64,000 bases of DNA, from positions 1 to 64,000 of IMG/VR virus record IMGVR_UViG_3300028909_000017. One strand, 5' to 3'. Shown one piece after another: positions 18,057 through 42,210 of the stretch. The translations under genes and the position numbers were made by a program. The stretch comes from a virus. How positions within the stretch are numbered: the stretch's first letter is position 1; each line of letters begins with the position of its first letter. The notes beneath the pieces were generated by a model, which saw nothing but the letters and a program-made list of their open reading frames with translations, was not told the DNA's origin and did no database searches.

Positions 18057-18276
18057 ATGACTAACCGGGAATTTGTTCTTTCATTATATCCACTTGCAAA
18101 TGTTCGGATGATCATTAAGAAAGATAACGGCCTTAAATTATATAAGGTTATGGCTAAACCCCCATCATATATATTTCACTTCATGGATTTCCGGTTGGAC
18201 GGCAAATGAAGTAGAAGTATGGGATATTGCGTATCAGGCAATACAACGTAAATTTTTAAATCGGTTATCTAAATGA
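18057..18276 (+). pseudogene. Frameshifted 'YP...AW' paralog
   Basis: MTNREFVLSLYPLA... then second frame ISGWTANEVEVWDIAYQAIQRKFLNRLSK*. Confidence 0.7.
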
Positions 18277-18315
18277 ATTACAAAGAGTTGATTTTGAATT
18301 TATGTTCCAACTTAC

Positions 18316-18419
18316 GAGCGTAAAACCACCAACTTTAGTTAGTGAATATAAGCGAGTTAAATAGTTAATTTTAAAAGAATAAATACCCAAATGTTAAAGT
18401 CATTCAAATATCGATTAAT
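18316..18419 (+). mobile_element. Truncated remnant of the IS200/IS605 TnpB element (left end plus first ~9 codons)
   Basis: Near-identical to the reverse complement of ~21942-22045, including TAAATA-N5-ATGTTAAAGTCATTCAAATATCGATTAAT. Confidence 0.85.
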
Positions 18420-18622
18420 ACGTATCGATATGCAATTGGGACATATGTTGAATATAGTTGTGATTTAGAAGAATCCCATTCTCATTTTCATATAGGAAAA
18501 ATTACAGAGCGAATATATTGGAATAATTTACCGGCATATTGCAGGAGCTGGTATAGTTTTGGATGATGAAGTTATTCGAGAATTAACAACCGACGAAGCA
18601 ATGATTTACTTATTGGAAAAAA

Positions 18623-20091: not shown

Positions 20092-20719
20092 AATAATTGG
20101 AAATTAAATCGATATAATATCTACTGATAGCTATATATTCTCCGTGTATAGCTATTTCGTTGCCTGATAATAAGGCTTCTGAAAGATTATTATTTTTAAA
20201 TCCAAAATCATTAATAAATTTATCTGATTCTTCTCTGGATGGAATATTTTTGATTGAATATTTTTTAACCGAATAGCAATTATATAATTCATTAGCTAGT
20301 ATTTTACTACTACCGATATCTGGTATTTTTTTACTCCAGGTAAAAGAAAAACCATTAATTGGGAATATTATATAGATCAATCCAAATTCCCTTGCCTGAC
20401 TTTCGGCAGTTGTGCATAAAATACTATTTGTCCTTAATGCAGTAAATCCTGATGTTTTTAAAAATAAATCTAACATTGCTTGCTGGGGTTGGGATTGCCC
20501 AGTGGGATTTCTATTTATCGGGGATTGAGTTTTGAATAATGGTGTTTTTGAAAATTTTGGATCAAGGCCACGATATAAAAAAGTTTCTGTTCCTTTTAAT
20601 GCCGTTAAAAATTCCGAGCAATTTTCATCAATATACTCTAGTGCCGTATAGATATCTTCTTCGGAAATTTCCGGTGGAGTCGGTTTTTTCTTTTTGAATA
20701 TTATTTCATTAATGCGCAT
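20081..20719 (-). CDS. ADP-ribosyltransferase-like paralog (probable internal head protein)
   Basis: FLYRG...RTNSILCT...NEIAIHGEY (R-S-E pattern); MRINEI start; TAAATA-N5-ATG. Confidence 0.6.
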   Translation of the reverse strand: MRINEIIFKKKKPTPPEISEEDIYTALEYIDENCSEFLTALKGTETFLYRGLDPKFSKTPLFKTQSPINRNPTGQSQPQQAMLDLFLKTSGFTALRTNSILCTTAESQAREFGLIYIIFPINGFSFTWSKKIPDIGSSKILANELYNCYSVKKYSIKNIPSREESDKFINDFGFKNNNLSEALLSGNEIAIHGEYIAISRYYIDLISNYFKV

Positions 20720-20727
20720 GTTTGTAT

Positions 20728-21970
20728 TTATCGGTGAACTACCACGTCCTTAAGGACGTGGTATCCAGGAGCAATTGCTCCAAGAATTTGTTCCTGCTTC
20801 AATAATACATAATTAGGTATACCAGTTACACCATTAGAGGTATCTCCACAGGCGTTATATTCGGACAGTTCCTGCCCTATAATTTTAAGACCGAATGCTT
20901 TAATATTTAATGCGGCATTATAATCCCGATCAATAGATAAACCACATGACGGGCAATTATAAGTTCGCAGATTTAAAGGCATTTTTTGTTTATAACCACA
21001 AGAAGAACATATCTGTGAACTAGGAGCAAAGCGATTTATTTTAATCAATTGCCCACCTGCCCATTCGAGTTTATAAAACAAATAACCCAGGAACTGCGAC
21101 CATCCCTGATCTGAAATTGCCTTTGCAAGGCAGTGATTTTTAGTCATGTTCTTTACTGCAAGATCTTCACAAATAATAATTGAGTTTTCTTTGGCTATCT
21201 GAGAACTAATTTGATGAAGAAAATCTTTTCTTTGAAATCTTACTTTTCTATGTAACTGAGCTAATTTAATTTTTGCTTTTAATTGATTTTTACTACCTTT
21301 TTGTTTACGAGAATATTGTCTTTGGTATTTCTTTAATTTCTTTTCACTTGCTTTAAGATATTTTGGTGATTCATAAATCACTGCATTACTATCGACTATG
21401 AAAGTTTTAATTCCGAGATCTATTCCAGTTATGTCATTACCAATACTTTCGACTTGTTTTACTTCCGGGCAATAATCCGTTTCACAAAGGCATGACACAT
21501 ACCACTGTTCCACATCTCGTGTTATAGTTATAGATTTTAAATTGCCAATCATTTCCCGATGGCGAATCCATTTAATTTCACCCAATTTCGGTATTTTAAT
21601 GAATTTGGGTCCTATTTTAATATGCCCATTTGTTTGTGACATTCGTATGCCACTTGGAGTTTTATGCTTAGATTTAAATTTCGGAAATCCAAATTTTGAT
21701 TTATAGCAGTTCTTTAGTGCTTGATCTAATTGAATGCATGTTTGCTGTAATGATTGACTTGGAGCACTTATCCAATTATATTGCTTTTTTAAATCGGGCA
21801 ATTGATTTGCCATATCAAATTTAAAAATGAATTTCTTTTCTGCGTTATACCTTGTTATGTTTTGGTTAAGAAATTGGTTCCAAATAAATCTTAATTGCCC
21901 CCTGCCATTCGATCAAAGTTTTCTCTTGTCCGTTGGTTGGCATTAATCGATATTTGAATGACTTTAACAT
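20728..21970 (-). CDS. tnpB: RNA-guided endonuclease TnpB; +1 frameshift in the G-run at 21898-21902 separates the N-terminus from the 361-aa body
   Basis: MLKSFKYRLMPT start at 21970; RuvC GIDLG / ICEDL / DRDYNAALNI and CSSC..CPSC zinc finger intact. Confidence 0.88.
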
Positions 21971-22045
21971 ATGTGTATTTATTCTTTTAAAATTAACTAC
22001 TTAACTCGATTATATTCACTAACTAAAGTTGGTGGTTATGCGCTC
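20734..22045 (-). mobile_element. IS200/IS605-family TnpB-only element (no TnpA)
   Basis: Left-end hairpin CACCAACTTTAGTTAGTG, right-end hairpin ACCACGTCCTTAAGGACGTGGT ending GTTCAC, tnpB between them. Confidence 0.85.
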
Positions 22046-22068
22046 GTGAATTAGAGATAAATATGTTT

Positions 22069-23004
22069 ATGGATAATTTAAACTTAATACCGGGTGAGCA
22101 AAAGATTTTTACTCGCACGCCAAAAAATATTGCAGCAAATAATATTTTTAAAACGAACGATAAAAATTTGCAGAAGAGATTAACCCATCTATGTAATTTT
22201 ATCGATGAAAATTGCTCGGAATTTTTGGGTTATGCAAAGCAAACCAAAAAATTATTATATCGTGGAATTAAAGATAAAACTGCCGGAAATATTTTTCTGG
22301 GATATTCAAGAAATAATCGCCATCCGAAGGATACAAATAGTACAATTCAAAAATTAGTTGATGAATATCTAACAATTGGTGGATTTAATGCATTGAGGTC
22401 AAATAGTATTTTTTGCATTGGAGATCCTAATGATACATCGGTATACGGTAAACCATTTTTAATTTTTCCGATTAATGGATTTGATTATTTATGGAGTATA
22501 GACCATTACGACTGGGTTATTTATCCTGCAACATTATCTCCCAATTTTCTAGAATTAGGTCAATTATTTAGTGATATTAGAAGATATTTTAATCATTCGG
22601 CACAATATGATGCTGTATCAGGAGATTTTAAAAATTTTTGGTATTCAGGACCAATCTATAATCTTTTAAATGACTTTATGAATACTTCAGATGGAGAAAA
22701 TTATATTTTTCAATTAGAACAATTGCAAAAATTATTTTCTGATATTGAAACAAAATATTCAGAATCTGGGCCAGCTATTACTAAATTTCTTGAGTCGAAT
22801 ATGTATTTTAAATCAGTTAATATGATTAATAATTCTTTAGATCCAAATATTGCATCTAAAGAATTTATACAATTTAATAAAATTACAAATACTCATTTCG
22901 AAACAGCTCTAAAACTTAATCATGAAATTTTAATTCATGGAAAATATGTAGCCGTAAATTATGAAATGTTTTATAGATATCTCAAAAATTATTTTTTGGA
23001 TTAA
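22069..23004 (+). CDS. ADP-ribosyltransferase-like paralog with ~100-aa insertion
   Basis: LLYRG...RSNSIFC...HEILIHGKY; TAAATA(22058-22063)-N5-ATG favours start 22069. Confidence 0.6.
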   Translation: MDNLNLIPGEQKIFTRTPKNIAANNIFKTNDKNLQKRLTHLCNFIDENCSEFLGYAKQTKKLLYRGIKDKTAGNIFLGYSRNNRHPKDTNSTIQKLVDEYLTIGGFNALRSNSIFCIGDPNDTSVYGKPFLIFPINGFDYLWSIDHYDWVIYPATLSPNFLELGQLFSDIRRYFNHSAQYDAVSGDFKNFWYSGPIYNLLNDFMNTSDGENYIFQLEQLQKLFSDIETKYSESGPAITKFLESNMYFKSVNMINNSLDPNIASKEFIQFNKITNTHFETALKLNHEILIHGKYVAVNYEMFYRYLKNYFLD

Positions 23005-23702
23005 TTTCGACGTTGACTATTTGGTCTGATATAATTTCTTCCAATACCGCTAGCCGGTTTAGATTTTACACCTTTCATAATTGCTTGGGCTTCAATACTA
23101 GGTGGTGTCAATAAAAATTTATTAATTTTCTTTCTAGCAGAGTTTAGTTCATTTATATCAATATCTTCATTGTTATTATGTACTAACGCAAAAGTATTAC
23201 CAAATAATAATTTATATAAATCAATATTTTTAGATGTATTTTCATATGCTTCTTCAAAATAATCAAGATCAACTTTACGATTAATATCTTCCGGATTATT
23301 TGATGTTACTAGTCTACTCTTAATTCTTTGTTGGGCGATATTTTTGTCTACCTCTATAAAAAGCATAAATGTATTATAATAATTTTCTTTTAATTTTTTA
23401 TTTAGTCGGATAATTGAATCTGCATTTCGTCCCGTTGCATTTGCAATTAATCCTAGATAATTATCAGCATATAAATTAAGTCTTTTTTCTGTTGTCTGAC
23501 CGGCTTGGGGATAAGAATGGTTTAATGATTGAAGATACATAATAGTTTTATCAACGTTTAATGATTTTAAGCCGAGCGTTTGTAGTCCTAATAAATGTTC
23601 TATGGTAGTTTTACCACTTCCCGGAGCGCCGCATAAAAATATTGATCGAAAATTATATCGATCATACGGCCCCTCATTTAATAACACTTCATTTATTTTC
23701 AT
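23001..23702 (-). CDS. P-loop kinase (zeta-toxin/AAA_33-like), probable internal head protein
   Basis: FLCGAPGSGKTT; MKINEVLLNEG N-terminus. Confidence 0.7.
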   Translation of the reverse strand: MKINEVLLNEGPYDRYNFRSIFLCGAPGSGKTTIEHLLGLQTLGLKSLNVDKTIMYLQSLNHSYPQAGQTTEKRLNLYADNYLGLIANATGRNADSIIRLNKKLKENYYNTFMLFIEVDKNIAQQRIKSRLVTSNNPEDINRKVDLDYFEEAYENTSKNIDLYKLLFGNTFALVHNNNEDIDINELNSARKKINKFLLTPPSIEAQAIMKGVKSKPASGIGRNYIRPNSQRRN

Positions 23703-24312
23703 TATTTTATCCCAAAATGTTTTGAAAGTAACTTATGGTATTTATCGGAAAGTGCAACATATTGGCCGTGAATTGTTATTTCATTTTTACTTTTAAGTGC
23801 CTGAGTGAAATTTGTATTCTTAAAATTCCAATATTTTATTAGTAAACTACCCGGATATGCCGTTAATGTATCTTCTATTTTACTGGCACCCATATCATTA
23901 ATTTTTGGGCTCCAAGTAAAAGAAAAACCATTAATAGGGAAAATATGAAATAATTCACCAAACCCATATTGATCATTATTGTCTGATGTGCAATACTATT
24001 GGATCGTAAAGAAGTGAACCCGGCTTGTTTTAAAATTTTATCTAATAGTATGATACTGTAGAAGCCGCTAACTGATTCACGATGGGTTGGAGTCATACTA
24101 AGAAATACTTTTGAAACGCCTGAATCATAATTTATTCTACGGTACAAAAATGTTTTTGCTTTTTTCATATCAATAATCGATTCATCACAATGAGAATCAA
24201 TGAAAGACATTATTTTATCGACATATTTTTCATAGCTTTTATATGCGCCATGCTCATCTGACCAATTGTCTGGAATTTTTTTCCCAAACGGTTTAATCTC
24301 ATCTATTCTCAT
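23702..24312 (-). pseudogene. Frameshifted ADP-ribosyltransferase-like paralog
   Basis: FLYRR...RSNSI in one frame, NEITIHGQY in another; intervening segment in a third frame. Confidence 0.7.
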
Positions 24313-25016
24313 ACGGTTATTCCAAAATGTTTTTGTATTTGCTTGCCATATTCAAAATTAAAAACTATAGCTACATATTGCCCATGAATTGATATTTCGT
24401 GGTTACTTTTTAATGCTTGTGATAAATCGTCATTTTTATATTGCATGTCTTTAACGAATTTTGCAACTGATGGTTTAGGTAGATTGCCTGTATTAATGTC
24501 AGGTCGATTTGCTTCTGGGAAGATATAATATTTCGGAAATAATTTCTTTAATGTAGAACTTAATATGGTTGACCCTCCTACATCTCTGATAAAATTGCTC
24601 CAAGTAAATGAAAATCCATTTAAGGGGAATATAAAATATGGTGTACCCCAATCTTTAACAAAACTTAGATCTGTTGTAGTGCAAATTGAATTGGTTCTTA
24701 ATGATAAAAATCCTGCACTAGATAAAATTTTATCAAATATTTGTTGATGTTGTAAGCCTTGCCCCTGTGGAATTCTATGTTTCGGAGAAGTTGCAATAAA
24801 AATTTGTGGAGCTTTACCTTGTGGTATTGCTCGATATAAAAAGTTGTTGGACCGCCGAACAGCCGAGCAAAATTCCGAACAATGATTTTCAATAAATTCT
24901 AAAACATTTTCAATTTTTTCCGAAGAATAATTATTAATTCCTCCGATGTCGGGAGAGTAGACATCTATAATATCCCTTTTATTATCAATCGGTTTAATTA
25001 TTTCAAATAATCGCAT
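24309..25016 (-). CDS. ADP-ribosyltransferase-like paralog
   Basis: FLYRA...RTNSICTT...HEISIHGQY; MRLFEI start at 25016 after TAAATA-N5. Confidence 0.6.
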   Translation of the reverse strand: MRLFEIIKPIDNKRDIIDVYSPDIGGINNYSSEKIENVLEFIENHCSEFCSAVRRSNNFLYRAIPQGKAPQIFIATSPKHRIPQGQGLQHQQIFDKILSSAGFLSLRTNSICTTTDLSFVKDWGTPYFIFPLNGFSFTWSNFIRDVGGSTILSSTLKKLFPKYYIFPEANRPDINTGNLPKPSVAKFVKDMQYKNDDLSQALKSNHEISIHGQYVAIVFNFEYGKQIQKHFGITV

Positions 25017-25024
25017 AATAGTAT

Positions 25025-25774
25025 TTATAGTTTTTTGAAATATGCCGGACCAGAAAACCAAATTTCATTATTTCCTGGAAAATTTTTAATTTCCGACAAT
25101 TTTTTAACCTTAAATTTATTTTTATTTGGATCAAGCATGGCGTCTAACACAGCAGTAAACGAATTATAGTGATTTGATGAAGATATGTACTGATCGATTA
25201 TTTCAAAGATGTATTTAAATTCTAAATCATTCTTCGGATGTAATTTATAATTTTTCCATCTTATATCAAGTTTTCTTATTTCAGATCTTAATATTGGTAA
25301 ATCATCTTTAAAATTTGTCCCAAAGCATACATTAAGATCGTAAAAAAGTGAAGAAAACTCTCCTAGAGAATCTATATTGTTTGATTTTTCAAAAGACCAC
25401 CATAAATCTCCATCGGGACAAATTCCAATTATAGGATCACCAACCGGAAATACTTGATAGATTTTTCCATATGCGGAGCAGTCAATCATATCTGAAGAAC
25501 ATATGAAACTGTAGGATCTTTTCGGATAAATTTTCCATTTAGGTAAAATATAATCCATTAATAATGTATAATAATTTTTTGTGTTTACAGAAGTTCTTTT
25601 AAATAATTTAGAATTACCATACAGTAAACTACGTTCATTACGAATTCCACGATAAATTTTAAATGGGGAATTAAACTCAATTGGACATTTTTTCGATAGA
25701 AATTCATCGATATTATTTTTTGGAATTTTAACAGTCGATGTTCGACTTTTTGCTAATATTTCGGTTATTCTCAT
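25025..25774 (-). CDS. ADP-ribosyltransferase-like paralog (divergent subfamily)
   Basis: IYRG...KRSYSFICSS...YG..Y.VFP...NEIWFSG. Confidence 0.6.
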   Translation of the reverse strand: MRITEILAKSRTSTVKIPKNNIDEFLSKKCPIEFNSPFKIYRGIRNERSLLYGNSKLFKRTSVNTKNYYTLLMDYILPKWKIYPKRSYSFICSSDMIDCSAYGKIYQVFPVGDPIIGICPDGDLWWSFEKSNNIDSLGEFSSLFYDLNVCFGTNFKDDLPILRSEIRKLDIRWKNYKLHPKNDLEFKYIFEIIDQYISSSNHYNSFTAVLDAMLDPNKNKFKVKKLSEIKNFPGNNEIWFSGPAYFKKL

Positions 25775-25776
25775 AT

Positions 25777-26451
25777 CTATTTCCTTTTAAATTTCGCGTC
25801 GATTAACGGTGCAAAATTATTATATGATATAGCTACATATTGCCCATGAATGGAAATTTCTTGGTTACGTATTAATGCTGCTTCGATATAATTATTATGA
25901 AATTTCCATTGGTCGATAAATTCTGTTGCATTCTCGTATGATAATTTTAGAATTGCACGATTTTCGTAGTTATCGCCGCTCGGCGCAAAATTTAATAGAG
26001 CTTGATGTAATTCATAATCTCCTCCGATGTCTTTAACTTTTTCACTCCAAGTATATGAAAAACTATTTAACGGAAAAATATAATATGGACTTCCCCATTG
26101 TCTTGCGGTCCATATTGTAGGTGTAACAGAAATTGATGTTGATCTTAATGATTTAAATCCAACTAATTTAAAAATATTATCCAATATTTTTTGTGTTGCC
26201 GGTGTTTGTCCTTGTGGCCGTCGATTAATTGGAGTCGTTGCAATAAAAATTTTGCCAGCAGAATTAATACCACGATATAGGAAAAAACCGGTTTGCTGAA
26301 AAACTTTAATAGCATCAGAACAATGCGTTGATATAAAATCTAATACATCTTTGATTTTATCGGCATCATACTGTTCAATATGTCCTACTCCCGCTTCCGA
26401 GTCATCAACTTTTTCAATATCAATCGGATTTATTAATTCAAATAATCTCAT
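25777..26451 (-). CDS. ADP-ribosyltransferase-like paralog
   Basis: FLYRG...RSTSISVT...QEISIHGQY; TAAATA-N5-ATG. Confidence 0.6.
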   Translation of the reverse strand: MRLFELINPIDIEKVDDSEAGVGHIEQYDADKIKDVLDFISTHCSDAIKVFQQTGFFLYRGINSAGKIFIATTPINRRPQGQTPATQKILDNIFKLVGFKSLRSTSISVTPTIWTARQWGSPYYIFPLNSFSYTWSEKVKDIGGDYELHQALLNFAPSGDNYENRAILKLSYENATEFIDQWKFHNNYIEAALIRNQEISIHGQYVAISYNNFAPLIDAKFKRK

Positions 26452-26488
26452 ACTTGTATTTATTTTTATTTTACTATATAATAATTAT

Positions 26489-27037
26489 ATGAATATTAAA
26501 AATTACCCCGATATAATGTTAGACCTGGAAACGCTGGCCACAACTCCAAATGCAAAAATTTTATCTATTTCGGCAGTTGCATTTGATCCACATGAATTAT
26601 CAGATGATTTAACACAAAATCCAAAGTTAGATTTACTATTGGATTTAGATGAACAAGAAAATCGGTACGAAGATCCTGATACCGTAGAATGGTGGGCAAA
26701 ACAAAGTCATGAAGTCCAGAATAAGATTTTTAGTGATACCGGTAGAGTAAAAGTTGATGATGCTATTTCTCAACTTTCAAAATTTGTATGGAATAAAGAT
26801 AGATTGTGGGCCCAAGGCATAGCGTTTGATTTTCCAATTCTTGAAAATTTATTTCGTGAACGCAAGAATAGTATTCCTTGGCAATATTATAAGGTTACTG
26901 ATAGTAGAACTATACGAGCATTGGTTGACTGTCCGGTATATAAAACATCACACGATTCTCTAGACGATTGTTATAATCAGATCAAGAGTGTCCAATATGT
27001 TTTACATGAATTAGGAATTACAAAATTTGTTAGATAG
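26489..27037 (+). CDS. DEDDh 3'-5' exonuclease
   Basis: MLDLETL, AFDFPIL, TDSRT, HDSLDD; ATG 26489 lies 6 nt after TATAAT. Confidence 0.85.
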   Translation: MNIKNYPDIMLDLETLATTPNAKILSISAVAFDPHELSDDLTQNPKLDLLLDLDEQENRYEDPDTVEWWAKQSHEVQNKIFSDTGRVKVDDAISQLSKFVWNKDRLWAQGIAFDFPILENLFRERKNSIPWQYYKVTDSRTIRALVDCPVYKTSHDSLDDCYNQIKSVQYVLHELGITKFVR

Positions 27038-27040
27038 ATA

Positions 27041-27676
27041 ATGGAAAATATTGAATTAACGGGTAGACAACGATTTAATGAAACCTGGCTTTTTGAAATG
27101 CCGTATGGGATAGGAAGTTTTCAAAATTTTGATGGAATTGTTTTTAATATTACCGATCTTTTAGATAATAGACAAATTCCGGAAAATTTGGGTAATAATC
27201 TTAATCGAATTCAATTGAACAATACTGCATATTTTTGGATGGAAAGAGATAATGTAATTCAACTTGGCGTGGAATTACAGAAACACCCAGAAGGATGGTC
27301 GGTTGCAATGACTGGAAAAAATCCACGGTTAAAAAGAAAACCACCATTTGCAAGTGATCTATATTGCGAAATTTTAAAATACCTAAAAAGTAGTATTCGA
27401 TTACTCAGCGATACACAGTTAAGCGATGAGGGTTTTGACATTTGGAAGCGTTTATTGAAGGATGGAAATACAATATCGATTTATGACAAAAATTTACCGG
27501 GAAAAACTTTTAAAACGATTCACACGGAAGAAGAATTAGAAAATTATTTTTCAAAGACAGATTTAAACTGCAAGGATTATCAATATATTTTAACCGAAAC
27601 TAGTTATTTGGCCGAAATGAGATCAAATTTTAATACTCGAAGATATCGAGAATTGTCAGGATTATTGATGGAGTAA
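27041..27676 (+). CDS. Hypothetical protein, possibly GNAT-fold
   Basis: LLSDTQLSDEGFDIWKRL resembles the C-terminal motif of phage GNAT-like proteins. Confidence 0.5.
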   Translation: MENIELTGRQRFNETWLFEMPYGIGSFQNFDGIVFNITDLLDNRQIPENLGNNLNRIQLNNTAYFWMERDNVIQLGVELQKHPEGWSVAMTGKNPRLKRKPPFASDLYCEILKYLKSSIRLLSDTQLSDEGFDIWKRLLKDGNTISIYDKNLPGKTFKTIHTEEELENYFSKTDLNCKDYQYILTETSYLAEMRSNFNTRRYRELSGLLME

Positions 27677-27705
27677 AAAAGGAGACCTATATAGGTCTCC
27701 TTTTT
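27675..27705. terminator. Bidirectional terminator
   Basis: AAAAAAGGAGACCTATATAGGTCTCCTTTTT palindrome between convergent genes. Confidence 0.8.
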
Positions 27706-28427
27706 CAGTCTTTAACAACGTTTCCATTTGGACCAAGTTTGCCCTCTACTCCAATAGTCGGTAATTCTAATAGATTGGGCCCATCAAAATATTTCAGCAA
27801 TAAATGTTCTATATCTTTATATTGATTAATATCGAGTGATGAAGTAAATTCTTCGATCATTAAATTGTATCTTGACAAAACCAATGATGTATTTTTTGCA
27901 TCCCATGACCATAACCGCGACATTAATTGATAAATTAATCCACCGGTAGTTTGTGGGGGGAATTGACTCAATCTTCGTTTACAAAAGATATATTTATTTG
28001 ATTTATTGAAATTTTCGATATTAAAACTGTCAGATAATAAATATCTTCCGCTAAGTTTAAAAACACGATCAATACCATTTAACATTTGTGGTTGTTTGGT
28101 TAGAATAAAATCCAAAGTTTTACATGTTACTATCATTTCGGTAAAGTTTTTAACTATGTCGAAATTTTTGCCATATAATTTATATATTTGTTGTACTGTT
28201 TTATCATCATTATAATTAATTAATCCGGTTAAATGAGGTCCAATTAATAATGATTCATTTTCAGATAATGCTGCTTCGGCTCCGCTGTCTGAAACAATAA
28301 TTTGAGCATCAGGAATTTTCGCTGTAATACTTTTTAATGTATCAATTGTTTGATTTAATCGTTCTTCGGCTGAAAAAACTCCATGAACTGTGTGGATGGC
28401 CGATGATACTAGAAATAATGTTTTCAT
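27705..28427 (-). CDS. Glycosyltransferase-like hypothetical protein
   Basis: SAI...ERL.QT..TL.SI...IP...FKLSGRY pattern. Confidence 0.5.
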   Translation of the reverse strand: MKTLFLVSSAIHTVHGVFSAEERLNQTIDTLKSITAKIPDAQIIVSDSGAEAALSENESLLIGPHLTGLINYNDDKTVQQIYKLYGKNFDIVKNFTEMIVTCKTLDFILTKQPQMLNGIDRVFKLSGRYLLSDSFNIENFNKSNKYIFCKRRLSQFPPQTTGGLIYQLMSRLWSWDAKNTSLVLSRYNLMIEEFTSSLDINQYKDIEHLLLKYFDGPNLLELPTIGVEGKLGPNGNVVKD

Positions 28428-28429
28428 TG

Positions 28430-29263
28430 TTACTCCAGATTAAAAATGTTAGGATATCTTTTAGCAAAGTTATTACGTAATAGAATCCAATGTTCTAATA
28501 ATTCAAAATGTTTTCCAGAAATTGCGGCTAATTTGATAGCTGACAATGCTCGTATTTCATCCATTATTTCTTCAGGTAATTTTGTTTTGTTTAATAATTC
28601 TTCTTTGGAATATTGATAAATTTGATATTTAATGCCGGATGAGATATTAAGAAAAATTGAAAGTAATCGTTCAATTACGAATGTATAATAAGGTAAAGAA
28701 CCGTTTGGTCCGTAATGAGCTCCGGTGTCAAACATTAATTTTGAATCATTTGGATTATTTTTAACTTCATTAATAAAGTTATTTACAAATTTAAGATAAA
28801 CAGGCCAAAAAATATTATCACCCACAAAGTAATTGCATAATGCAAATGAAGTTGAATCCATTAAAATTTGATCGACATTAATTGGAATATTCATTCGATT
28901 CATTACCCGCTGAATTAGATCTGTTAATCCGGGATGACAATTATTACCTTGTACAATTACCGATGGAAATAAACATTCATTAAGGGGGCATGGGTTTACA
29001 ATATAAACATTTGTACTTCCGGGAGTTATCCAGTCATAGAATTTTTGCTCAGTTAAACCAGATTTTTCTGAAAATTTCGGACTTAAAAACCCCCAGTAAT
29101 CTAGTTGTTCTTTTTGCGCTAATTTAAAGCCTTCGTTGAAAATTGGAAATTCACATAATTTTGGATTTTCATTTTTTAAATTATCATATGGTACAAATGG
29201 TTTTTTTACTTTTTCCATTTGATCATTGAGATAACATATTTGGTATAATTTAATTTTAATCAT
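28430..29263 (-). CDS. Glycan-modification-like hypothetical protein
   Basis: YQI.Y...WGFLSPKF..K...CNYFVG...FW...FVIERL pattern. Confidence 0.5.
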   Translation of the reverse strand: MIKIKLYQICYLNDQMEKVKKPFVPYDNLKNENPKLCEFPIFNEGFKLAQKEQLDYWGFLSPKFSEKSGLTEQKFYDWITPGSTNVYIVNPCPLNECLFPSVIVQGNNCHPGLTDLIQRVMNRMNIPINVDQILMDSTSFALCNYFVGDNIFWPVYLKFVNNFINEVKNNPNDSKLMFDTGAHYGPNGSLPYYTFVIERLLSIFLNISSGIKYQIYQYSKEELLNKTKLPEEIMDEIRALSAIKLAAISGKHFELLEHWILLRNNFAKRYPNIFNLE

Positions 29264-29307
29264 GATGATTAATTATAACATGTCTGACAATATAGATAAA
29301 TACAAAT

Positions 29308-30017
29308 ATGAAGATAAAAGAAATTATATATGAAGGTGGTAATGTATGGTCCGGTTAATTGGCGACCATTCGTATTCGTCGTGAGCAAGTTCTTCCGACA
29401 GTTAAATTTTTAGAAAAAGTAACTGGATTACCGCTAGAAAATAATATGTTGGGTTCTACGGGCATTAAAGAAACATCAGGAGACATAGATTTGGCCGTGG
29501 ACAAATCTATAATAACCAAAGATGAATTACTTGCTAACATTAGGAAATGGACGGAAAAACATAATGTTACAGATATAATGCCGGCTAAAAAAGTCGGTAG
29601 TAGTGTGACTATGCGATGTCCAATATCTGGTAACCCTAGAAATCAATTCGTTCAAGTCGACCTTATGTTTTGCTCCAATATTGAATTTGCCCGATGGGCA
29701 ATAAGAGCTAATACGGATAGCAAATATAAAAATTTAGTTAAAAATAAATTGCTTTATAATTTGGCAAAATCAATGAATTTACGGTATCAAGAGCAGGAAG
29801 GGTTAACAACATTAGATACTAAAAAACTTTTAAAGAACGGAAATAATCCTGATTTTATCGCCAAAAATTATTAAATACTAAAGCTACGAGAAAAGATATT
29901 GAATCAGTAGAGGGCATTATGAATGCACTAAAAAATGATCCAAAAAAAGAAGATAAACTTCGGTTTGCATATCCGGCAGTATTAGCCGAAACCGGTGTCG
30001 ATTTGAGACAATTATGA
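29308..30017 (+). pseudogene. Pol-beta-type nucleotidyltransferase (internal head type), disrupted
   Basis: MKIKEIIYEGGNVWSG*LAT...LGSTG.KETSGDIDLAVD...QVDLM; TAA at 29356-29358 and a frameshift in the A-run near 29863-29867. Confidence 0.75.
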
Positions 30018-30622
30018 AAATAAATGATTTTGAAAAATCTATTTCACTTCGATTATTGGAAATAGAAGAAGACGTAATAAATGATATTCTATCGAATTGT
30101 TCTAATTCGATTAAAGTCTTTAAAGAATATAATGAATTATTGTTTTCCGGGATGGTTAATAGAGGTACATATTTTACTTTTATAGATCATTCCCCAATTC
30201 ATAGGAGACCTAGGGGAATGTCGATAGATGAGCAGGAATATATAGATGAATGCCTAACATTAGCAGGTTTTAGCGCATTAAGAAGTAATAGTATATTTTG
30301 TATTTCTGATTATAGCCAGGCTAAAAATTTCGGAGATGCTTTTATAATTATTCCTATTAATGGATTTTCTTTTACAGGAATTAATAGCAGACGATATCTT
30401 AACTATGTCTCCCTTCCGGATATTTCAGGGGATGACGGTGTAACTATAGATATGGCAGATTTTATTGTACGTAACTATGGTTTTTTTCATGATGATTTTG
30501 CTCATGCAGTGTTTTCTGAGAATGAAGTAATGATTAATGGATCGTATCGAGCATTAAGATTAAAATCCCCCGGAACTAAGAGGATATTGAAAAAATTAGG
30601 GTTAGATATTAAACAAAGGTAA
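30014..30622 (+). CDS. ADP-ribosyltransferase-like paralog (YRG replaced by FSG)
   Basis: RSNSIFCIS...FG..FIIIPINGFSF...NEVMINGSY. Confidence 0.55.
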   Translation: MKINDFEKSISLRLLEIEEDVINDILSNCSNSIKVFKEYNELLFSGMVNRGTYFTFIDHSPIHRRPRGMSIDEQEYIDECLTLAGFSALRSNSIFCISDYSQAKNFGDAFIIIPINGFSFTGINSRRYLNYVSLPDISGDDGVTIDMADFIVRNYGFFHDDFAHAVFSENEVMINGSYRALRLKSPGTKRILKKLGLDIKQR

Positions 30623-30630
30623 ATATAATC

Positions 30631-32133
30631 ATGAGATACGTTGAATTATTAGAAAGCGGCAGTCGAGGATTGTTTGTAAGATGTCAAGAAGCCGCGGCTG
30701 GAAAAAAAATTGTTTTCAAAAGTCAAGAAGGAAAAACAATTACAGCTATCGGAGTTGCTGTTTTGCCGGAAAAATTTGCATTTTATGAAAACGATACTAT
30801 AAATGATTTGCCGATTAATGCAAGGTCACTTCCTCCCTTTGAACAAAAGAAATTGTTAAAAACTGGTCAACAAAAATTAATGGATTCTCTGGAACAATAT
30901 CGGTTGACTGCAAAAATTACAAATAATAATTGGAATATTGTTAATAGTAATGGACGTTCAGCACTTATTACTTTATGGACAAATAATCGCAATCAATTAA
31001 TTGCTTATGTTAAATTGTTTCAGCAAAAAAGTTTAAGTGCAATTCCATTTTTTTGGAGTAATAGTGATTTTTCTAAAGATACCGGTTTTTCCATTGAAAA
31101 TGTTTCTCAATTAAAGGCTGCATTGAATTTAAAGCCTTCTACGGTTGTTGGGGTGGATGCAAGATTTTCTATTGATGATTTATTAGAACAAGTTTCAATT
31201 AATATTGTTGAACATACTGAATTACCTGCAGAAGTTATTAAACAAGTTCCACAATTATTAAGAAATGTTCAGTCTGGGTTCAGTGAACCAACGGCGAATG
31301 CTGCTCAATATATTAACTCGTATGAAGTTGATTTAGGAGAAACTGCCGCACCCATTGCATTTATGACTGGTCATTTTGTTTCGGGCGCATATAAACAGGT
31401 TGAAGATCAGTTGTTAAAACCATTGGGATCTAGCTGGAAGAAAATTAAGACCTGTTCGTTCCCGATGGCAGGTAATGAGCAATTAGTTGATAGTTATCTT
31501 AATATAAATGCTTCAACCAAAATAGGAATAAGTTCAAAAGATTCTGGTGGCGGCGCGGCTGCGAGCGTGACAAGTTTATCTTCAGTAATTGAAAAAAATC
31601 CTGAACGTTTTAAAGATTTATTAAATAAAAAAAAATACAAGTATTTGTTTAATGTAATTAACTTGATAAAAGAAAAATCCGCCGTTGAAGGTCCATTGGA
31701 ATTGGGCGTATTATATGGAATAATTGATCGAGCAGATCAAATTAAAATTTTAGAGGCAACCAACGATCCACATTTAATTAAATCAGATGTAACTAAAAAA
31801 TTACAAAAGTTATTAAATAACCCGATTTATAAGCCCAATACAAAATCGCCTAATTATATGATTGGCTATCATTTATTGACCGCTGTTGCTAATTTAGTAA
31901 CGGAACATTTGAATGAACAAGAAGATACGGTGACTGCATTTTTTAAAGAAATTTTATCTCGGTCAAACATGGTTCAGTGTAAAACAATAATGAAGTCGAC
32001 TGGATCTGCCGCTGCATTTATAGATTTTAATATAATTTGGCCACCCGTTTTTGAAGGCAAAGTGAAGTTTCAAAGTCAAAAAAATTACGGTTCTGGAAAA
32101 CCTGGTGGAAAAATATGCTTTAAAATAGGATAA
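30631..32133 (+). CDS. Late 500-aa protein, possible PD-(D/E)xK nuclease-like
   Basis: MRYVELLES start after TAAATA-N5; DLGE...FP..GNEQLVDS...ISSK segment. Confidence 0.5.
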   Translation: MRYVELLESGSRGLFVRCQEAAAGKKIVFKSQEGKTITAIGVAVLPEKFAFYENDTINDLPINARSLPPFEQKKLLKTGQQKLMDSLEQYRLTAKITNNNWNIVNSNGRSALITLWTNNRNQLIAYVKLFQQKSLSAIPFFWSNSDFSKDTGFSIENVSQLKAALNLKPSTVVGVDARFSIDDLLEQVSINIVEHTELPAEVIKQVPQLLRNVQSGFSEPTANAAQYINSYEVDLGETAAPIAFMTGHFVSGAYKQVEDQLLKPLGSSWKKIKTCSFPMAGNEQLVDSYLNINASTKIGISSKDSGGGAAASVTSLSSVIEKNPERFKDLLNKKKYKYLFNVINLIKEKSAVEGPLELGVLYGIIDRADQIKILEATNDPHLIKSDVTKKLQKLLNNPIYKPNTKSPNYMIGYHLLTAVANLVTEHLNEQEDTVTAFFKEILSRSNMVQCKTIMKSTGSAAAFIDFNIIWPPVFEGKVKFQSQKNYGSGKPGGKICFKIG

Positions 32134-32320
32134 GACTAAGATGCCAGCATCTACACCTTTCGGCTCCGCTGGCATCATTCACTACTGATCGCTATTTTTA
32201 AGGTTTACATTTTTAATTTTGAAATAGTCAGGTCATGTCCTTTTTGCGCCGCCCAACGCTCGTTGGCCTCCGTATTGAAACTGCATCATCCGCCGCTCTA
32301 TATAGATTTAAATTTCTAAA

Positions 32321-32643
32321 TTACCTTAGATATGTTGCTCCGTATAAAGTAACGCTTATTCCCCATCCATAATCTTTATCAAAAATATTACCTCTCTTGT
32401 GTTTAGCCGGTGCATTCCACCCTGCCGCTTTTAAATATCTCCATTTTCTTTGTTCACAAAACAATGAACCGACCGAGAGCCGGCTGAAATTCGGATGATC
32501 TTATAAAATTTTCCTCCTTCGGTAAATTCAAATGTGGGAACCGATGAATTGTCAAAATGCTTTTCAAAATACAATGAGGTTTCGAGTTGAATCTTATCAA
32601 TGAATCCACGAAGTTGTGTTGCTACCGTTTCATTGGCTTTCAT
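32321..32643 (-). pseudogene. Frameshifted small early phage protein
   Basis: SVHCFVNKENGDI then, after a 1-nt loss near 32433, KAAGWNAPAKHKRGNI...YLR*. Confidence 0.75.
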
Positions 32644-32694
32644 ATCTGATCTCCTCACTGAAATAATTATAGCAAATTGCAACCGATAATGCAA
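32644..32694 (-). promoter_or_regulatory. Early promoter-RBS cassette
   Basis: TTGCAT-17-TATAAT-TATTTCAGTGAGGAGATCAGAT-ATG. Confidence 0.85.
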
Positions 32695-32717
32695 CCGAAA
32701 TAGTCAAAATAATCGAT

Positions 32718-32850
32718 GTTGAAAACAAAGGACTTAATTTTCGATATAAGGGGTTGGGGTTAATTTGACATATTCAACCATGATCAGGGTATAATTGGGG
32801 TGACATAGGGAATATTTGACTATTTTGGCTCTTTAATTTCAGTTATCTAC
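32718..32850. repeat. ~125-bp inverted-repeat-bounded module, copy 2
   Basis: GTTGAAAACAAAGGACTTA ... GGCTCTTTAATTTCAGT (degenerate distal end). Confidence 0.6.
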
Positions 32851-33090
32851 AAATGTGAACTACCACGACCTAAAGGACATGGTTTCCGAAGCCATATGGC
32901 TTCATCTTTTATTCCTGCTTACTCGGAAGAAATATTTCTTCCTTCAATACATATCTGGAAATTAATTTCTTAATTTCCCCATTAGAGATATCTCCACAGG
33001 CGTGTGAGGAATTACAAGTAATCCCGTTAATTTCCGAAGTTCCTTCGGTATTTTGAAATTATAATTGAGTTTCTTGGTTATCAAAACTCA
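32835..33090 (-). ncRNA. Putative stand-alone omega-RNA (TnpB guide RNA)
   Basis: Starts just after TAAATA (33095-33100); series of hairpins homologous to the tnpB 3' scaffold; predicted guide ATTTGTAGATAACTGAAATT. Confidence 0.55.
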
Positions 33091-33146
33091 ATAATATTTA
33101 CACAACTCGCTTATATTCACTAACTAAAGTTGGTGGTTTTACGCTC
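32855..33146 (-). mobile_element. Non-autonomous derivative of the TnpB element (left end + omega-RNA region + right end, no ORF)
   Basis: Left end matches 18316 and 22045 copies; CGCCTGTGGAGATA.CTCTAATGG and GTGGTAGTTCAC match the tnpB 3' end. Confidence 0.85.
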
Positions 33147-33157
33147 GTAAGTTGGAA

Positions 33158-33186
33158 TAAAAGCCAGTCATATATGACTGGCTTTA
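33158..33186 (-). terminator. Terminator after queD
   Basis: AAAGCCAGTCATATATGACTGGCTTT palindrome with T-tail on the minus strand. Confidence 0.7.
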
Positions 33187-33226
33187 AATTTTAATACAAA
33201 AAGAAAATATATAGTTAATTATCTTC

Positions 33227-33751
33227 CTAGGAAAGTCGATATTCCGCGGCAGATGAGGGAGTTTCTTTTAAAACAACCGAATATAATTTCGCTTGATTGC
33301 CAGTTGCTTCTGAAATTTTAGGGTTCAGAATGTTAAAAAAATGTTTGGCTAATGATTCGGCCGTCGGATATTCATTAATAATGTATGTTTTTCCAAATGC
33401 GGTTTGCCCATTCCAAAAACTATTTTCATTAATGGTGCTAGAAATTTCTTCAATCCAATCGTAAAAAATATGATCCATTAATTTTTCGTCATATGCCATA
33501 TTAATAAATTTGTCGTCTTTTAACGATAAAATTAATGCATGATCACAAAATGCATCGATATTTTGCATCATTATTTCTTTTAAAAATCCATAGTCAAATA
33601 CCATTTGAGACTGTGGACCCGATTCAAATAGATCCCCAGATAAATAAACTGTCATTGAATATCGATGTCCATGCAGATTTCGACATTTACTTTCATGCAA
33701 TGGAACACGATGTGCAGAATCAAATTCAATAGTTTTACTAATTATATTCAT
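33227..33751 (-). CDS. queD: 6-carboxy-5,6,7,8-tetrahydropterin synthase QueD
   Basis: FDSAHR...KCRNLHGHRY...MVFDYG..K...DH...PTAE.LA...ETPSS.AEY. Confidence 0.92.
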   Translation of the reverse strand: MNIISKTIEFDSAHRVPLHESKCRNLHGHRYSMTVYLSGDLFESGPQSQMVFDYGFLKEIMMQNIDAFCDHALILSLKDDKFINMAYDEKLMDHIFYDWIEEISSTINENSFWNGQTAFGKTYIINEYPTAESLAKHFFNILNPKISEATGNQAKLYSVVLKETPSSAAEYRLS

Positions 33752-37356: not shown

Positions 37357-38682
37357 TTACCTTTCAAACCAAATTTTAATTTGCACAAGAGCAACGGCCT
37401 GTTCTTTTGTTGTTATTACTCCATCGAGCTGAGCCGTTTCTACAGCTTCCAACAAAATTTTAAAATTGGGACCTGGCTTCATTCCCATTTCAATTAGATC
37501 ATTACCAGTGAGCAATCTTTCGGGTCTCAATTCTTCCGGGGCCATACTTTCCAGAAAATTTTTGCAAAAATCATGATCGGTCAAATTGCCATTGCTGCCG
37601 AGACTGTCAAATTTATTAAGTTCAAGCAATTCACTAAAGTTGTCTGAACGAACAAATCTTTTCAATTTCGAAACATTCATGTGCGACGTATTAAAAAATC
37701 GCATATGGTTTGCAACCAGATCCGTCACGGTATCGACAACTTCGTTTGAAAATCGAAGATCGCGTAATGTATTTTTGGTCATCTTTGCTCCAACATGTTC
37801 ATGACCAAAAAATTGATTATGTCCAGTTGACGGATTACGCTTTGCTGTTACAGGCTTTCCCACGTCGTGAAAAAGTACGCCAAGCGCGAGGGTCAGAGAA
37901 CAATTGGGCTTCAAAAAGGAAAGCATTTTCAATGTATGATTCCACACATTTCCTTCCGGGTGCCATTTTTCATTCTGATCTACACCACGCATCCTGCAAA
38001 AATCAGGCAAAACATACTGAAGAATACCGGTTTCATCGAACAATTTAAATGCAACATCAACATTACCTCCAGTAAGAATCTTGCTTAATTCACCAGCGAT
38101 ACGATCGGCGGGCAATGTTTTAACGGACGATGCAAATTCTGTAATTGCGGCTTTTGTTTCTGATTCGATTGTAAATCCCAATCGAGCAGCGAATCGTACT
38201 GCCCGAAGCAAACGCAATGCATCTTCTTTGAAACGATTCTTTGGATTCCCTACCGTTCTTACTACCTTGTTATTGAGATCATCCAATCCGCCAACAAAAT
38301 CAAATACCTTGCCATTTTTATCCATAAGCAAAGCATTGATTGAAAAATCGCGTCTCAAAACATCTTCTTTGGGATCGTTGGTAAATTTTACGGAATCTGG
38401 ACGGCGTGAGTCAGAATAACTGCCATCTAACCGAAATGTCGCAGTTTCGAATTCATCACCATTCATTTTTACGAGTGATACACCAAAATTCTCCCCAACA
38501 AATTTTGATCCAGGGAAAATTTTAGCAACCTGATCGGGAGTAGCGGAGGTCGTGATGTCGTAATCATGCACCGGCAGATCGAGCAATGTATCTCGTACAC
38601 CCCCGCCAGCCAAGAAAGAGGTAAATCCTTCATTTTCAAGAATTTGCATTACTTTCATCGCATTGTTTTTGGTTGTCATCAT
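37357..38682 (-). CDS. cca: CCA tRNA nucleotidyltransferase with HD domain
   Basis: GGGVRD, DYDITT, RRDFSINAL, EDALRLLRAVRF, HPEG..WNHT, LFHDVGK; ATG at 38682/38679 after GAGGGA. Confidence 0.93.
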   Translation of the reverse strand: MMTTKNNAMKVMQILENEGFTSFLAGGGVRDTLLDLPVHDYDITTSATPDQVAKIFPGSKFVGENFGVSLVKMNGDEFETATFRLDGSYSDSRRPDSVKFTNDPKEDVLRRDFSINALLMDKNGKVFDFVGGLDDLNNKVVRTVGNPKNRFKEDALRLLRAVRFAARLGFTIESETKAAITEFASSVKTLPADRIAGELSKILTGGNVDVAFKLFDETGILQYVLPDFCRMRGVDQNEKWHPEGNVWNHTLKMLSFLKPNCSLTLALGVLFHDVGKPVTAKRNPSTGHNQFFGHEHVGAKMTKNTLRDLRFSNEVVDTVTDLVANHMRFFNTSHMNVSKLKRFVRSDNFSELLELNKFDSLGSNGNLTDHDFCKNFLESMAPEELRPERLLTGNDLIEMGMKPGPNFKILLEAVETAQLDGVITTKEQAVALVQIKIWFER

Positions 38683-38734
38683 TCCCTCACTCACAAATAT
38701 AGTATAGCAATTTTTGGTTTAATTGTCAACCGAT

Positions 38735-38965: not shown

Positions 38966-39038
38966 TACCTTTACCTCATTGAAATAATTATAGCAAAGTT
39001 CGGTACATATTGCAACCGAAAAAGTCAAAATAATTATT

Positions 39039-39174
39039 GTTGAAAACAAAGGACTTAATTTTCCATTTACGGGGATTATTTTAGCTTGGCATGGTTATAT
39101 ATGGTTGAATGGTTGCTAGGGCAATGTCGGGCAAATTCATTGTTAATGCGGTAATTAAGTCCTTTGTTTTCAAT
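39039..39174. repeat. Inverted-repeat-bounded module, copy 3 (136 bp)
   Basis: GTTGAAAACAAAGGACTTAATT ... AATTAAGTCCTTTGTTTTCAAT; early promoter immediately downstream at ~38987-39015 on the minus strand. Confidence 0.8.
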
Positions 39175-41539: not shown

Positions 41540-41719
41540 TCAACTTATTTCGGGAAAAAGATCAACCTGATTAACGACAATGTCAATGAAGTTAGGCTTA
41601 AATCCAAAAGAATCTTCTAGTTGAGAAAGTTCATCATTTGACGGGTCATGATCAAAAGCTCTTAAAAATGTTGACCCGTCATAACCTTCGTCTTCAAATG
41701 CCAGCCAAATTTTTTGCAT
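41540..41719 (-). CDS. Small early protein
   Basis: MQKIW start directly after promoter-RBS cassette. Confidence 0.6.
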   Translation of the reverse strand: MQKIWLAFEDEGYDGSTFLRAFDHDPSNDELSQLEDSFGFKPNFIDIVVNQVDLFPEIS

Positions 41720-42036
41720 ATCTGATTTCCTCACTGAAATAATTATAGCAAAGTTCGGTTAATATTGCAACCTAAAATTGAATTTTTTTGATGCGAATTT
41801 GAGGTTCATTGAGGGAATTGATGAATGCAGTGATCTGATAGGTATTATCATCCGCAAAAATATTAACGTGTTCGCAATCACCCGCCCGAACGATCGCTAA
41901 ATTTTGGACTGATTCGACTGTAATTGCTTCAATTGAATTAATACTTTCTCCGATTAGCAACTTTTTCATATCTGAGTTCCTCACTGAAATAATTATAGCA
42001 ACGTTCGGTTAATATTGCAACCTAAAATTGAATTTT
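41720..42036 (-). repeat. Two near-identical ~67-bp early promoter-RBS cassettes (41720-41786, 41970-42036)
   Basis: ATCTGA.TTCCTCACTGAAATAATTATAGCAA.GTTCGGTTAATATTGCAACCTAAAATTGAATTTTT direct repeat. Confidence 0.85.
41772..41969 (-). CDS. Small early protein
   Basis: MKKLL start directly after cassette. Confidence 0.6.
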   Translation of the reverse strand: MKKLLIGESINSIEAITVESVQNLAIVRAGDCEHVNIFADDNTYQITAFINSLNEPQIRIKKIQF

Positions 42037-42046
42037 TTGCAATAAA

Positions 42047-42210
42047 TAAGTCCTTTGTTTTCAACAAAATTAATAATTGTTGAAAACAAAGGACTTAATT
42101 TTCTATTTTAGAGTATATTTTTAGATATGTATATAATAGTATAGCCGAGTGTTTATTGGGGTTATACCGAGCATTTTGTTAAAAATTACCCTTTTGCTTT
42201 CAACAGTTTA
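42047..42210. repeat. Inverted-repeat-bounded module, copy 4, plus an extra inverted half-site
   Basis: TAAGTCCTTTGTTTTCAAC (42047) / GTTGAAAACAAAGGACTTA (42079) ... CCCTTTTGCTTTCAAC (42204). Confidence 0.75.

Follow-up and report, generated by a model that had tools for sequence, protein, structure and literature searches.

A phage-borne, tnpB-less IS200/IS605-type element that retains a structurally conserved omega-RNA scaffold

The stretch analysed here, referred to as the window, comprises the first 64 kb of the 125,414-bp IMG/VR virus record IMGVR_UViG_3300028909_000017 (34% G+C, without end repeats). The CheckV completeness estimate for the 125-kb record is 59%, which leaves about 41% of the genome unassembled. 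On the minus strand of the window, from 33156/7 to 32855, lies a derivative of an IS200/IS605-type element that lacks tnpB and measures 302-303 nt, here named mini1. Read along the minus strand, a TTTAT motif is followed by a left-end (LE) hairpin, an A/T box, a 5′ hairpin (H0), a scaffold of stems S1 to S7, a tail that ends in TTCAC and, outside the element, the guide flank. Inside mini1, open reading frames (ORFs) reach 40 aa at most, and open frames through the scaffold at most 49 aa. A preliminary description of this locus had listed a series of features, all of which we located in the sequence. It had also presented the element as a 292-bp unit with both ends and no tnpB. The ends and the absence of the gene were recovered, whereas the length must be revised: the LE shares 54 nt of identity with another LE of the record and this identity extends to 33157, with TTTAT at 33161..33157, so that the LE reaches 33156/33157 and not 33146.

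All features of mini1 are on the minus strand. The TTTAT motif (33157..33161), the putative transposon-adjacent motif (TAM), is directly 5′ of the LE and doubles as the T-tract of the upstream gene's terminator. This is a terminator-like palindrome with a T run (GCCAGTCA TATA TGACTGGC, 33160..33185; 11 pairs in the plus-strand terminator listing) downstream of a QueD-like gene (33751..33227), and mini1 is found directly behind it. The LE (33101..33156) contains an imperfect subterminal hairpin, CACCAACT-TT-AGTTAGTG, at 33135..33118. The right-end (RE) hairpin, which is also stem S7 of the scaffold (CCAUGUCC-UUUA-GGUCGUGG, in DNA letters CCATGTCC-TTTA-GGTCGTGG), occupies 32855..32882 together with the tail TAGTTCAC. 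Both subterminal hairpins are imperfect, resemble each other and are embedded in the same AAACCA..CTTTAG..GTG context, and there are no terminal inverted repeats. The same likeness between LE and RE hairpins was seen in two relatives from the databases (L023 and L025). Homology among the copies stops at the guide flank ATTTGTAGATAACTGAAATT (32835..32854), the first 16 nt of which correspond to 32854..32839. The RE boundary after TTCAC was set by another copy, mini3, for which removal of the element restores an ATGA stop/start overlap between the flanking ORFs. No repeat of the flank was present at the RE, hence no target-site duplication was seen, and insertion took place 3′ of TTTAT.

Between these ends, the element holds a complete set of RNA stems. 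The A/T box TAAATATTAT (33091..33100) marks a deletion junction and includes TAAATA at 33100..33095; the equivalent letters are TATAAT in mini2 and TATAAAT in mini3. The alignment traces this box back to GATTATAAT, codons for Asp-Tyr-Asn within the RuvC DRD motif of tnpB. Behind it is H0 (33064..33092), which folds from ATTGAGTTTT and GAAACTCAAT with 10 bp and the loop GATAACCAA; H0 occurs in all three minis and is not a helix in the full tnpB element. Stem S1, CCGAAG-GAA-CTTCGG (33034..33048), is the first conserved stem of the omega-RNA of this family. Next comes S2, GGGAUUA-CUUG-UAAUUCC (GGGATTAC..GTAATTCC; 33008..33025), an optional insertion carried by the three minis and missing from the resident tnpB element, at the position of which two relatives (L025 and L027) have unrelated hairpins. 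The near-invariant core ACGCCTGTGGAGATATCTCTAATGG (32979..33003), located with the core pattern search, contains stem S3. The adjacent S4, GGAAAUUAA-GAAA-UUAAUUUCC (32957..32978), is a hairpin of variable sequence: mini2 has GUAACUGG/CCAGUUAC and the relatives have other letters at this position, and a hairpin is formed every time. Stem S5, GGAAGAAAU/AUUUCUUCC (DNA GGAAGAAAT/ATTTCTTCC; 32925..32942), is an insertion found in mini1, with a gap in the other three copies. Finally, S6, GAAGCC-AUAU-GGCUUC (32888..32903), is the homologue of GGAGC/GCUCC in the full element. These features define mini1 as a non-autonomous IS200/IS605-type element, namely a miniature inverted-repeat transposable element (MITE) of the type of the palindrome-associated transposable elements (PATEs). 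It is a new, phage-borne example of an element type already described in bacteria. Of the two options considered in the preliminary description, a guide-carrying MITE is the best description, given that both ends are present, tnpB is not, and the whole omega-RNA scaffold has been kept.

The record contains three such minis (mini1; mini2, 100284..100007; mini3, 86139..85898), one full-length tnpB element (20734..22056, minus strand, with TTTAT at 22061..22057 and the tnpB gene at 21970..20728) and one solitary LE (18299..18427, plus strand), which consists of TTTAT and approximately the first 30 nt of tnpB followed by unrelated sequence. When run against the 125-kb record, a covariance model constructed on the four scaffolds recovered these four and no others. 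The two additional minis answer the earlier question of whether further copies exist in the genome, and bring the count to four scaffolds with several guides. The motif TTTAT precedes each of the five LEs in the record, as well as the LEs of relatives L023 and L025. The LE of mini1 is 88% identical to that of the full element over 59 nt (22003-22061) and 100% identical to the solitary LE over 54 nt (18305-18358). Meanwhile, its right-end part matches the full element at 20734-20766 (88%) and 20831-20855 (96%). The proposed homology between the scaffold and the 3′ end of tnpB is thus borne out by matches to the resident element at both ends.

The copies also preserve traces of their history. 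Mini1 and mini2 are inserted at different sites and have a common deletion junction, GCGAGTT|G.., which suggests that the deletion happened once and that its product then moved. An internal deletion fused the LE to the last ~250 nt of tnpB, precisely the part that encodes the omega-RNA, and the product appears to have reached three or more sites in this phage. Mini3 has undergone additional deletion, and has lost the 3′ arm of the LE hairpin and also part of the RE hairpin. Its identity to mini1 is 76%, and that of mini2 is 92% over its 5′ part only. Mini2 is recombinant-like, with a 5′ half resembling mini1 and an S4-to-S6 part resembling the full element.

We then considered whether the conserved part behaves as a functional RNA. 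The minus-strand RNA of mini1 has a folding energy of -71 kcal/mol (z = -4.40), and none of 200 shuffled sequences folds as well. In all four copies, folding of the sense strand is favoured over that of the antisense strand by 10-15 kcal/mol (z of -5.3 against -3.0 for mini1), which points to RNA rather than DNA structure. The covariance model built from the four in-record scaffolds (R1) scored mini1 at 190 bits and the scaffold of the resident tnpB at 151 bits, and across the databases it found 45 scaffolds in 43 sources. Among these 45 scaffolds, standard pairs occupied 93.2% of 1202 cells in an alignment (A3) that was fitted to the model structure, so that pair counts lean towards this structure; shuffling gave 65.8 +/- 0.9%, and none of 500 shuffles reached the observed value. 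When pairing partners were slid by 1-3 columns, paired cells fell to 36-53%. Two-sided changes were observed at 35 of the 42 pairs, and all six pairs of S1 and all seven pairs of S6 covary. A MAFFT alignment of 13 scaffolds misplaced the S1 of the minis and was excluded from these counts.

Pair changes within the record tell the same story. They were read from a MAFFT alignment of the four in-genome copies, and from the folds in the case of H0. Relative to GGGCAG/CTGTCC of the resident tnpB, S1 shows three two-sided changes and one one-sided change. In mini3, an A-U pair of S2 has become G-C, the closing pair of S3 has turned from C-G into U-A, and H0 has been retained through changes from G-C to A-U and from A-U to G-U. 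Among the four copies, S4 carries two two-sided changes (A-U to U-A and U-A to C-G) and S6 carries two-sided changes at four pairs. Selection has therefore maintained the minus-strand structure of the RNA-coding part, and this includes mini3 despite the loss of its LE hairpin. This hairpin is one that the transposase TnpA would need, and mini3 has nonetheless kept H0 and S1-S6, which suggests that the RNA gene and not its mobility has been kept. The claim that pairing is preserved while sequence diverges thus holds, both across the 45 scaffolds and among the four copies. The view of CCGAAG/CTTCGG as a new stem has to be abandoned, since it is homologous to GGGCAG/CTGTCC of the resident tnpB, CCGTAG/CTACGG of L026, and CCGAAG/CTTCGG of L118. 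Likewise, the portrayal of mini1 as a dedicated and elaborated omega-RNA gene is correct with regard to the addition of H0 and of a mini1-specific stem, but most of its stems are ordinary for the family. At gathering thresholds, Rfam models had no match in the window; nine weak matches within 32780-33220 were all far below threshold. A tRNA search found none.

The scaffold family is widespread. Searches with the core pattern yielded 44 stretches in bacterial and archaeal genomes (genome_contigs) and 18 in viral_contigs, and about 30 of the 45 matches to R1 came from genome contigs. The best non-self matches to this model were nonetheless viral contigs, with 75-82 bits, against 57-59 bits for the best genome matches, which have different RE tails. 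At the 45 scaffolds, reading frames of at least 300 aa were found in 19 cases, no long frame in 12 and an ambiguous situation in 14; the 12 frame-less scaffolds include the three minis of this record, and some may be frameshifted genes. In another viral contig, a full element (L086) is accompanied by a mini deleted for tnpB (L079), which has again kept the whole scaffold. The S1 pattern matched more than 118 stretches in metagenome_contigs, and among the 80 listed, one (L118) has the scaffold, associated with a full-length 421-aa tnpB. Comparing 601 nt against INPHARED phages with blastn gave no match, and a long mini-specific pattern had 0 matches in viral_contigs. The neighbouring QueD-like protein, used as bait in viral_contigs, returned 10 pattern matches, none of which was confirmed as a relative.

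A separate observation concerns seven contigs of metagenome-assembled genomes from Spirochaetota, Omnitrophota and Planctomycetia (L040, L041, L059, L067, L072, L030 and L068). In these, the core follows a short hairpin and S1, with no tnpB coding sequence before the core. Judged by their sequence, they appear to be additional minis without a protein gene, from a sister subfamily with the right end GTGGAACGG.

The phage is present in many peat metagenomes, which allowed us to compare positions 18000-33400 with two DNA runs (X3 and X10) and two metatranscriptomes (X18 and X19). An RNA contig of 232 nt and depth 5.9 from X19 aligns to mini1 at 33092..32977. This contig carries the three diagnostic differences of mini2, followed by the S4 letters of mini2 and a mini2-like part, and therefore derives from mini2. 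Its first letter corresponds to the first base of H0, where the last two bases of the A/T box lie. If collinear with the genome, it would end at 99991, 16 nt past the RE (30 of the last 56 letters were compared, and these match). As X19 has zero depth in 21 of the 30 bins of the 15.4-kb stretch, uniform DNA carry-over is an unlikely source of the contig. A second RNA contig from the same run (101 nt, depth 18.5) matches at 32854-32887; its RE is identical to that of mini1 at 32 of 34 positions and both of its flanks are different. Therefore, a further member of the family is transcribed, located either in the missing part of the genome or in a relative. No contig from X18 or X19 covered tnpB at 21084-22111, a negative that does not demonstrate absence. 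Collectively, a discrete RNA contig exists for the sister copy mini2, and the evidence for expression is suggestive but thin.

A candidate -10 element is provided by the A/T box that marks the deletion junction. The preliminary description had drawn attention to TAAATA, which is indeed present at 33100..33095, but this hexamer carries little weight, as it occurs 246 times in the 125-kb record. We also evaluated TATAAATA, the consensus of T4-type late promoters. The minis fit seven of its eight positions, but TATAAATA was seen 24 times against 28.6 expected under a second-order Markov model, and this candidate was rejected. The suggestion that the RNA is expressed late in infection is not supported: TATAAATA is not enriched, the sigma-70 scan gave no promoter-like site on the strand of the element, and the neighbours of mini1 are not structural genes but QueD-like and DNA-polymerase-exonuclease genes of nucleotide metabolism.

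The flanks that would act as guides are mutually unrelated among the four scaffolds. For none of these guides was a second target found after TTTAT in the record, allowing up to three mismatches in 16 nt. The element-free allele is the sole target predicted, a situation shared with other IS605-type elements. Based on these findings, we propose that a mini is transcribed from the A/T box at its deletion junction into an RNA of ~215-240 nt, which would begin with a stabilising 5′ hairpin and end ~16 nt into the flank. Such an RNA would load a TnpB supplied in trans. The complex would then cut TTTAT plus guide, that is, the element-free allele, either in a co-infecting relative or after excision. 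Recombinational repair could copy the mini back in, resulting in retention or homing. Taken as a whole, the account of a PATE-like MITE with a selected RNA that acts in trans as an omega-RNA and leads to homing is one that we regard as probable, with moderate confidence.

A series of observations weighs against this account, among them the condition of the resident nuclease gene. The encoded TnpB, with its start at 21970, has the Pfam domains OrfB_IS605 and Cas12f1-like_TNB and otherwise retains the RuvC catalytic and zinc-finger motifs. Yet one extra G in a G5 run at 21902..21898, where relatives imply G4, shifts the frame between the first 24 codons and the open frame of 394 codons that follows, and tblastn with the TnpB of a relative recovered two pieces in different frames. 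A contig of X3, a run not flagged as the source of the record, covers 20787-22069 with 0 differences, frameshift included, therefore an assembly slip is unlikely. The scaffold of the full element has itself lost 6 nt, corresponding to the 3′ arm of S4. In the 125-kb record, an estimated 59% complete, there was no match to Y1 TnpA (PF01797). Furthermore, neither X18 nor X19 contained an RNA contig specific to mini1, and a sigma-70 two-hexamer scan returned no promoter-like site on its strand. The ends of the mini2 contig need not be RNA ends, and the 101-nt contig runs 57 nt past its RE, indicating read-through without trimming to a 16-nt guide. No joint skipping mini1, as expected of an empty-site allele, occurred in the DNA runs X3 or X10, and the mini1 flank pattern had 0 matches in metagenome_contigs, a collection that may omit near-identical records. 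To these points is added the above-mentioned lean of the pair counts towards the model structure.

A second tnpB was not found in the same incomplete record. Programmed frameshifting at the G5 run appears unlikely, as the site lacks both a slippery heptamer and a zero-frame stop close by. With the resident tnpB broken, a working nuclease would have to be supplied from another source, unless the system has recently died. It could be provided by the unassembled 41% of the genome, by the host, or by rare correction of the frame; otherwise, the system would just have been switched off. Hence, the idea of a multi-guide TnpB system is upheld as far as four scaffolds with four guides are concerned, but such a system would not work from this record alone, the sole tnpB of which is frameshifted.

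An alternative is that the minis are inert relics, dead deletion derivatives in which stems look conserved only through youth or homogenising recombination. The frameshifted tnpB, the absence of TnpA from the record, the lack of a mini1 transcript in two RNA runs, the damaged LE and RE hairpins of mini3 and the recombinant-like mini2 would all suit this explanation. Nevertheless, the identities of mini2 and mini3 to mini1 show that the copies are not young, and decay does not account for two-sided compensatory differences in H0, S2, S3, S4 and S6, for G-U pairs that confer a strand-specific structure, or for the RNA contig over mini2; we therefore consider it improbable that the minis are mere relics. 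We attribute a similarly low probability to the possibility that they have been exapted as portable promoters, 5′ leaders, ribosome-binding sites or terminators/insulators for the downstream gene, independently of TnpB. All four scaffolds are intergenic, directly upstream of and co-oriented with the next gene. The TTCAT of mini2 recreates the ATG of ORF 100008..99622 with AAGGAGG 8 nt upstream, the RE of mini3 adjoins the AAAGGAG of its next gene, and several stems are terminator-like on the opposite strand. On the other hand, the RNA contig of mini2 stops at an inferred 16 nt past the RE and does not continue into the gene, and a role as leader leaves unexplained why the complete family-wide omega-RNA architecture is present along with its invariant core. 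In addition, the ~190 nt that follow mini1 hold a separate and strong TTGCAT-17-TATAAT promoter for the next gene, therefore mini1 is not needed as a promoter there.

The broken tnpB beside three intact guide genes also raises the scenario of a phage that keeps guides only and depends on its host for a TnpB of this clade, with the phage tnpB dispensable and in decay. The wide occurrence of the scaffold core in bacterial and archaeal genomes is compatible with this, but the strongest non-self matches are viral, the weaker genome matches differ in their RE tails, and no host TnpB with TTTAT/TTCAC-type ends is in evidence. Such a hijack of a host nuclease appears to us very unlikely. Returning to the account of a PATE-like MITE with a trans-acting omega-RNA, a bolder version of it would have the phage keep the minis, as protein-less and self-promoted omega-RNA genes, to serve as RNA-guided homing or exclusion elements with one intergenic site each. 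We find this version rather unlikely. A TnpB acting in trans, of phage or host origin, would cut co-infecting related genomes that lack the insertion at TTTAT plus guide. In this way, the minis and the genes beside them would spread by sweeps through the phage population, with no nuclease of their own. They would be 'parasites of a parasite' that are starting to fuse with the expression signals of the phage.

Some additional observations concern the genes around the copies. At its RE, mini2 has TTCAT instead of TTCAC, and the last two of these bases together with the G of the flank recreate the ATG of the downstream ORF (100008..99622, 128 aa), whose pre-insertion ATG would have taken the AT of TTTAT. 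The last stem of mini2 reads AAGGAGG 8 nt upstream of this ATG (mini2 end, 100007-100013). From the letters of this junction, the end of the transposon seems to have been shaped by co-evolution into start signals for the downstream gene. Meanwhile, mini3 (86121-86144) is situated inside the former ATGA overlap, and the upstream 106-aa ORF now stops at a TAA within the LE, therefore it ends in a few element-encoded C-terminal residues. The ORFs on either side of the full tnpB element, 20081-20719 (minus strand) and 22063-23004 (plus strand), both belong to phrog_11975 (E 8e-28 and 1e-30), and are probably divergent paralogues in opposite orientation around the insertion.

An intergenic module of ~100 nt recurs in the genome in at least 10 copies of 78-100% identity, with a promoter-like TTGCAT-17-TATAAT pair upstream of minus-strand genes. 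Within the window, copies are found at 32638-32753, 60110-60223, 38974-39074, 16564-16651, 41714-42106, 45461-45493 and 59555-59590, and outside it at 107574-107660, 108441-108526 and 125289-125358. The copy at 32638-32753 lies ~80 nt from the mini1 guide. Metagenome contig depth is very high at the module (76x in bin 32392-32905, against ~10x). This repeat may be what the preliminary description called a module, in which case the guide would not overlap it as put forward there. The QueD-like gene upstream of mini1 (33227-33751; phrog_2389, E 3e-28) encodes a putative 6-pyruvoyl-tetrahydropterin synthase, a hint that the DNA of this phage may carry 7-deazaguanine modification; if present, such a modification could affect cutting by RNA-guided or restriction nucleases. 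Elsewhere in the window are genes for two RNA ligases (53017-54108 and 55199-56311), an HD-domain protein of the CCA-adding/poly(A) polymerase family (37357-38694) and a ClpX-like ATPase (61687-62907), which look like an RNA-repair and host-takeover set.

Mini1 provides a clean natural case of a TnpB element that has lost its nuclease gene and kept a complete guide-RNA gene under structural selection. The loss of the nuclease with retention of the guide RNA is a first step towards encoding guide and nuclease apart, as in CRISPR. The viral setting is of relevance, as co-infection supplies element-free alleles for RNA-guided homing. The data also define the omega-RNA architecture of a TnpB clade with the TAM TTTAT, the tail TTCAC, stems S1, S3, S4, S6 and S7, and optional stems S2 and S5. 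The underlying idea has already been published for bacterial PATEs, and with the resident nuclease gene broken, the biological pay-off is unproven here. Our literature search included a cyanophage tnpB preprint and an OMEGA review; in the accessible text of these sources, no publication on phage-borne elements made up of an omega-RNA alone was encountered.

Among known systems, the omega-RNA guide of ISDra2 TnpB (Karvelis et al. 2021) is reported to be ~16 nt long, a length equal to the inferred overhang of the mini2 RNA contig. In ISDra2 and in the minis alike, the scaffold overlaps the 3′ end of tnpB and the RE, the guide is the DNA that flanks the RE, and a 5-nt TAM is found 5′ of the LE. 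The minis differ from it in the sequence and stems of the scaffold, which matches no Rfam family, in their TAM (TTTAT), and in being an RNA gene without an ORF. Another parallel is the viral contig with L086 and L079, where a full tnpB element is likewise accompanied by an internally deleted copy. In that copy, the LE has been preserved together with all of the scaffold, beginning shortly upstream of S1 and ending at TTCAC. Unlike the minis, it has also preserved the promoter region of tnpB along with the ~30 initial codons, has no H0, and represents a separate deletion event.

The closest described counterparts are the protein-less PATE-like elements found beside tnpB elements in Geobacillus stearothermophilus (Meers et al. 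2023, PMC10055086), which, according to the accessible text of that work, often encode omega-RNAs necessarily used in trans. PATEs and minis alike have a tnpB-type LE and RE, no protein gene, and several copies beside full-length relatives. In both, the omega-RNA is kept without a protein gene, therefore TnpB and TnpA are needed in trans. As far as the accessible text of PMC10055086 goes, the minis are set apart by residing in the genome of a phage and not in a bacterial chromosome, by the extra 5′ hairpin and the A/T box at the junction, and by a cognate tnpB in the same record that is frameshifted, with no tnpA in the record. The moulding of the mini2 RE into the start signals of a phage gene is a further difference, although the supplements of that paper may show similar cases. 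The proposed outcome is also reminiscent of the free-standing homing endonucleases of T-even phages (Seg and Mob) and of intronless homing, as treated in the accessible part of a review (PMC13565253): an element-less allele in a co-infecting genome is cut, and repaired from the genome that bears the element. In the minis, by analogy, recognition would be performed by an RNA guide and a TAM instead of a protein, by elements that encode no nuclease.

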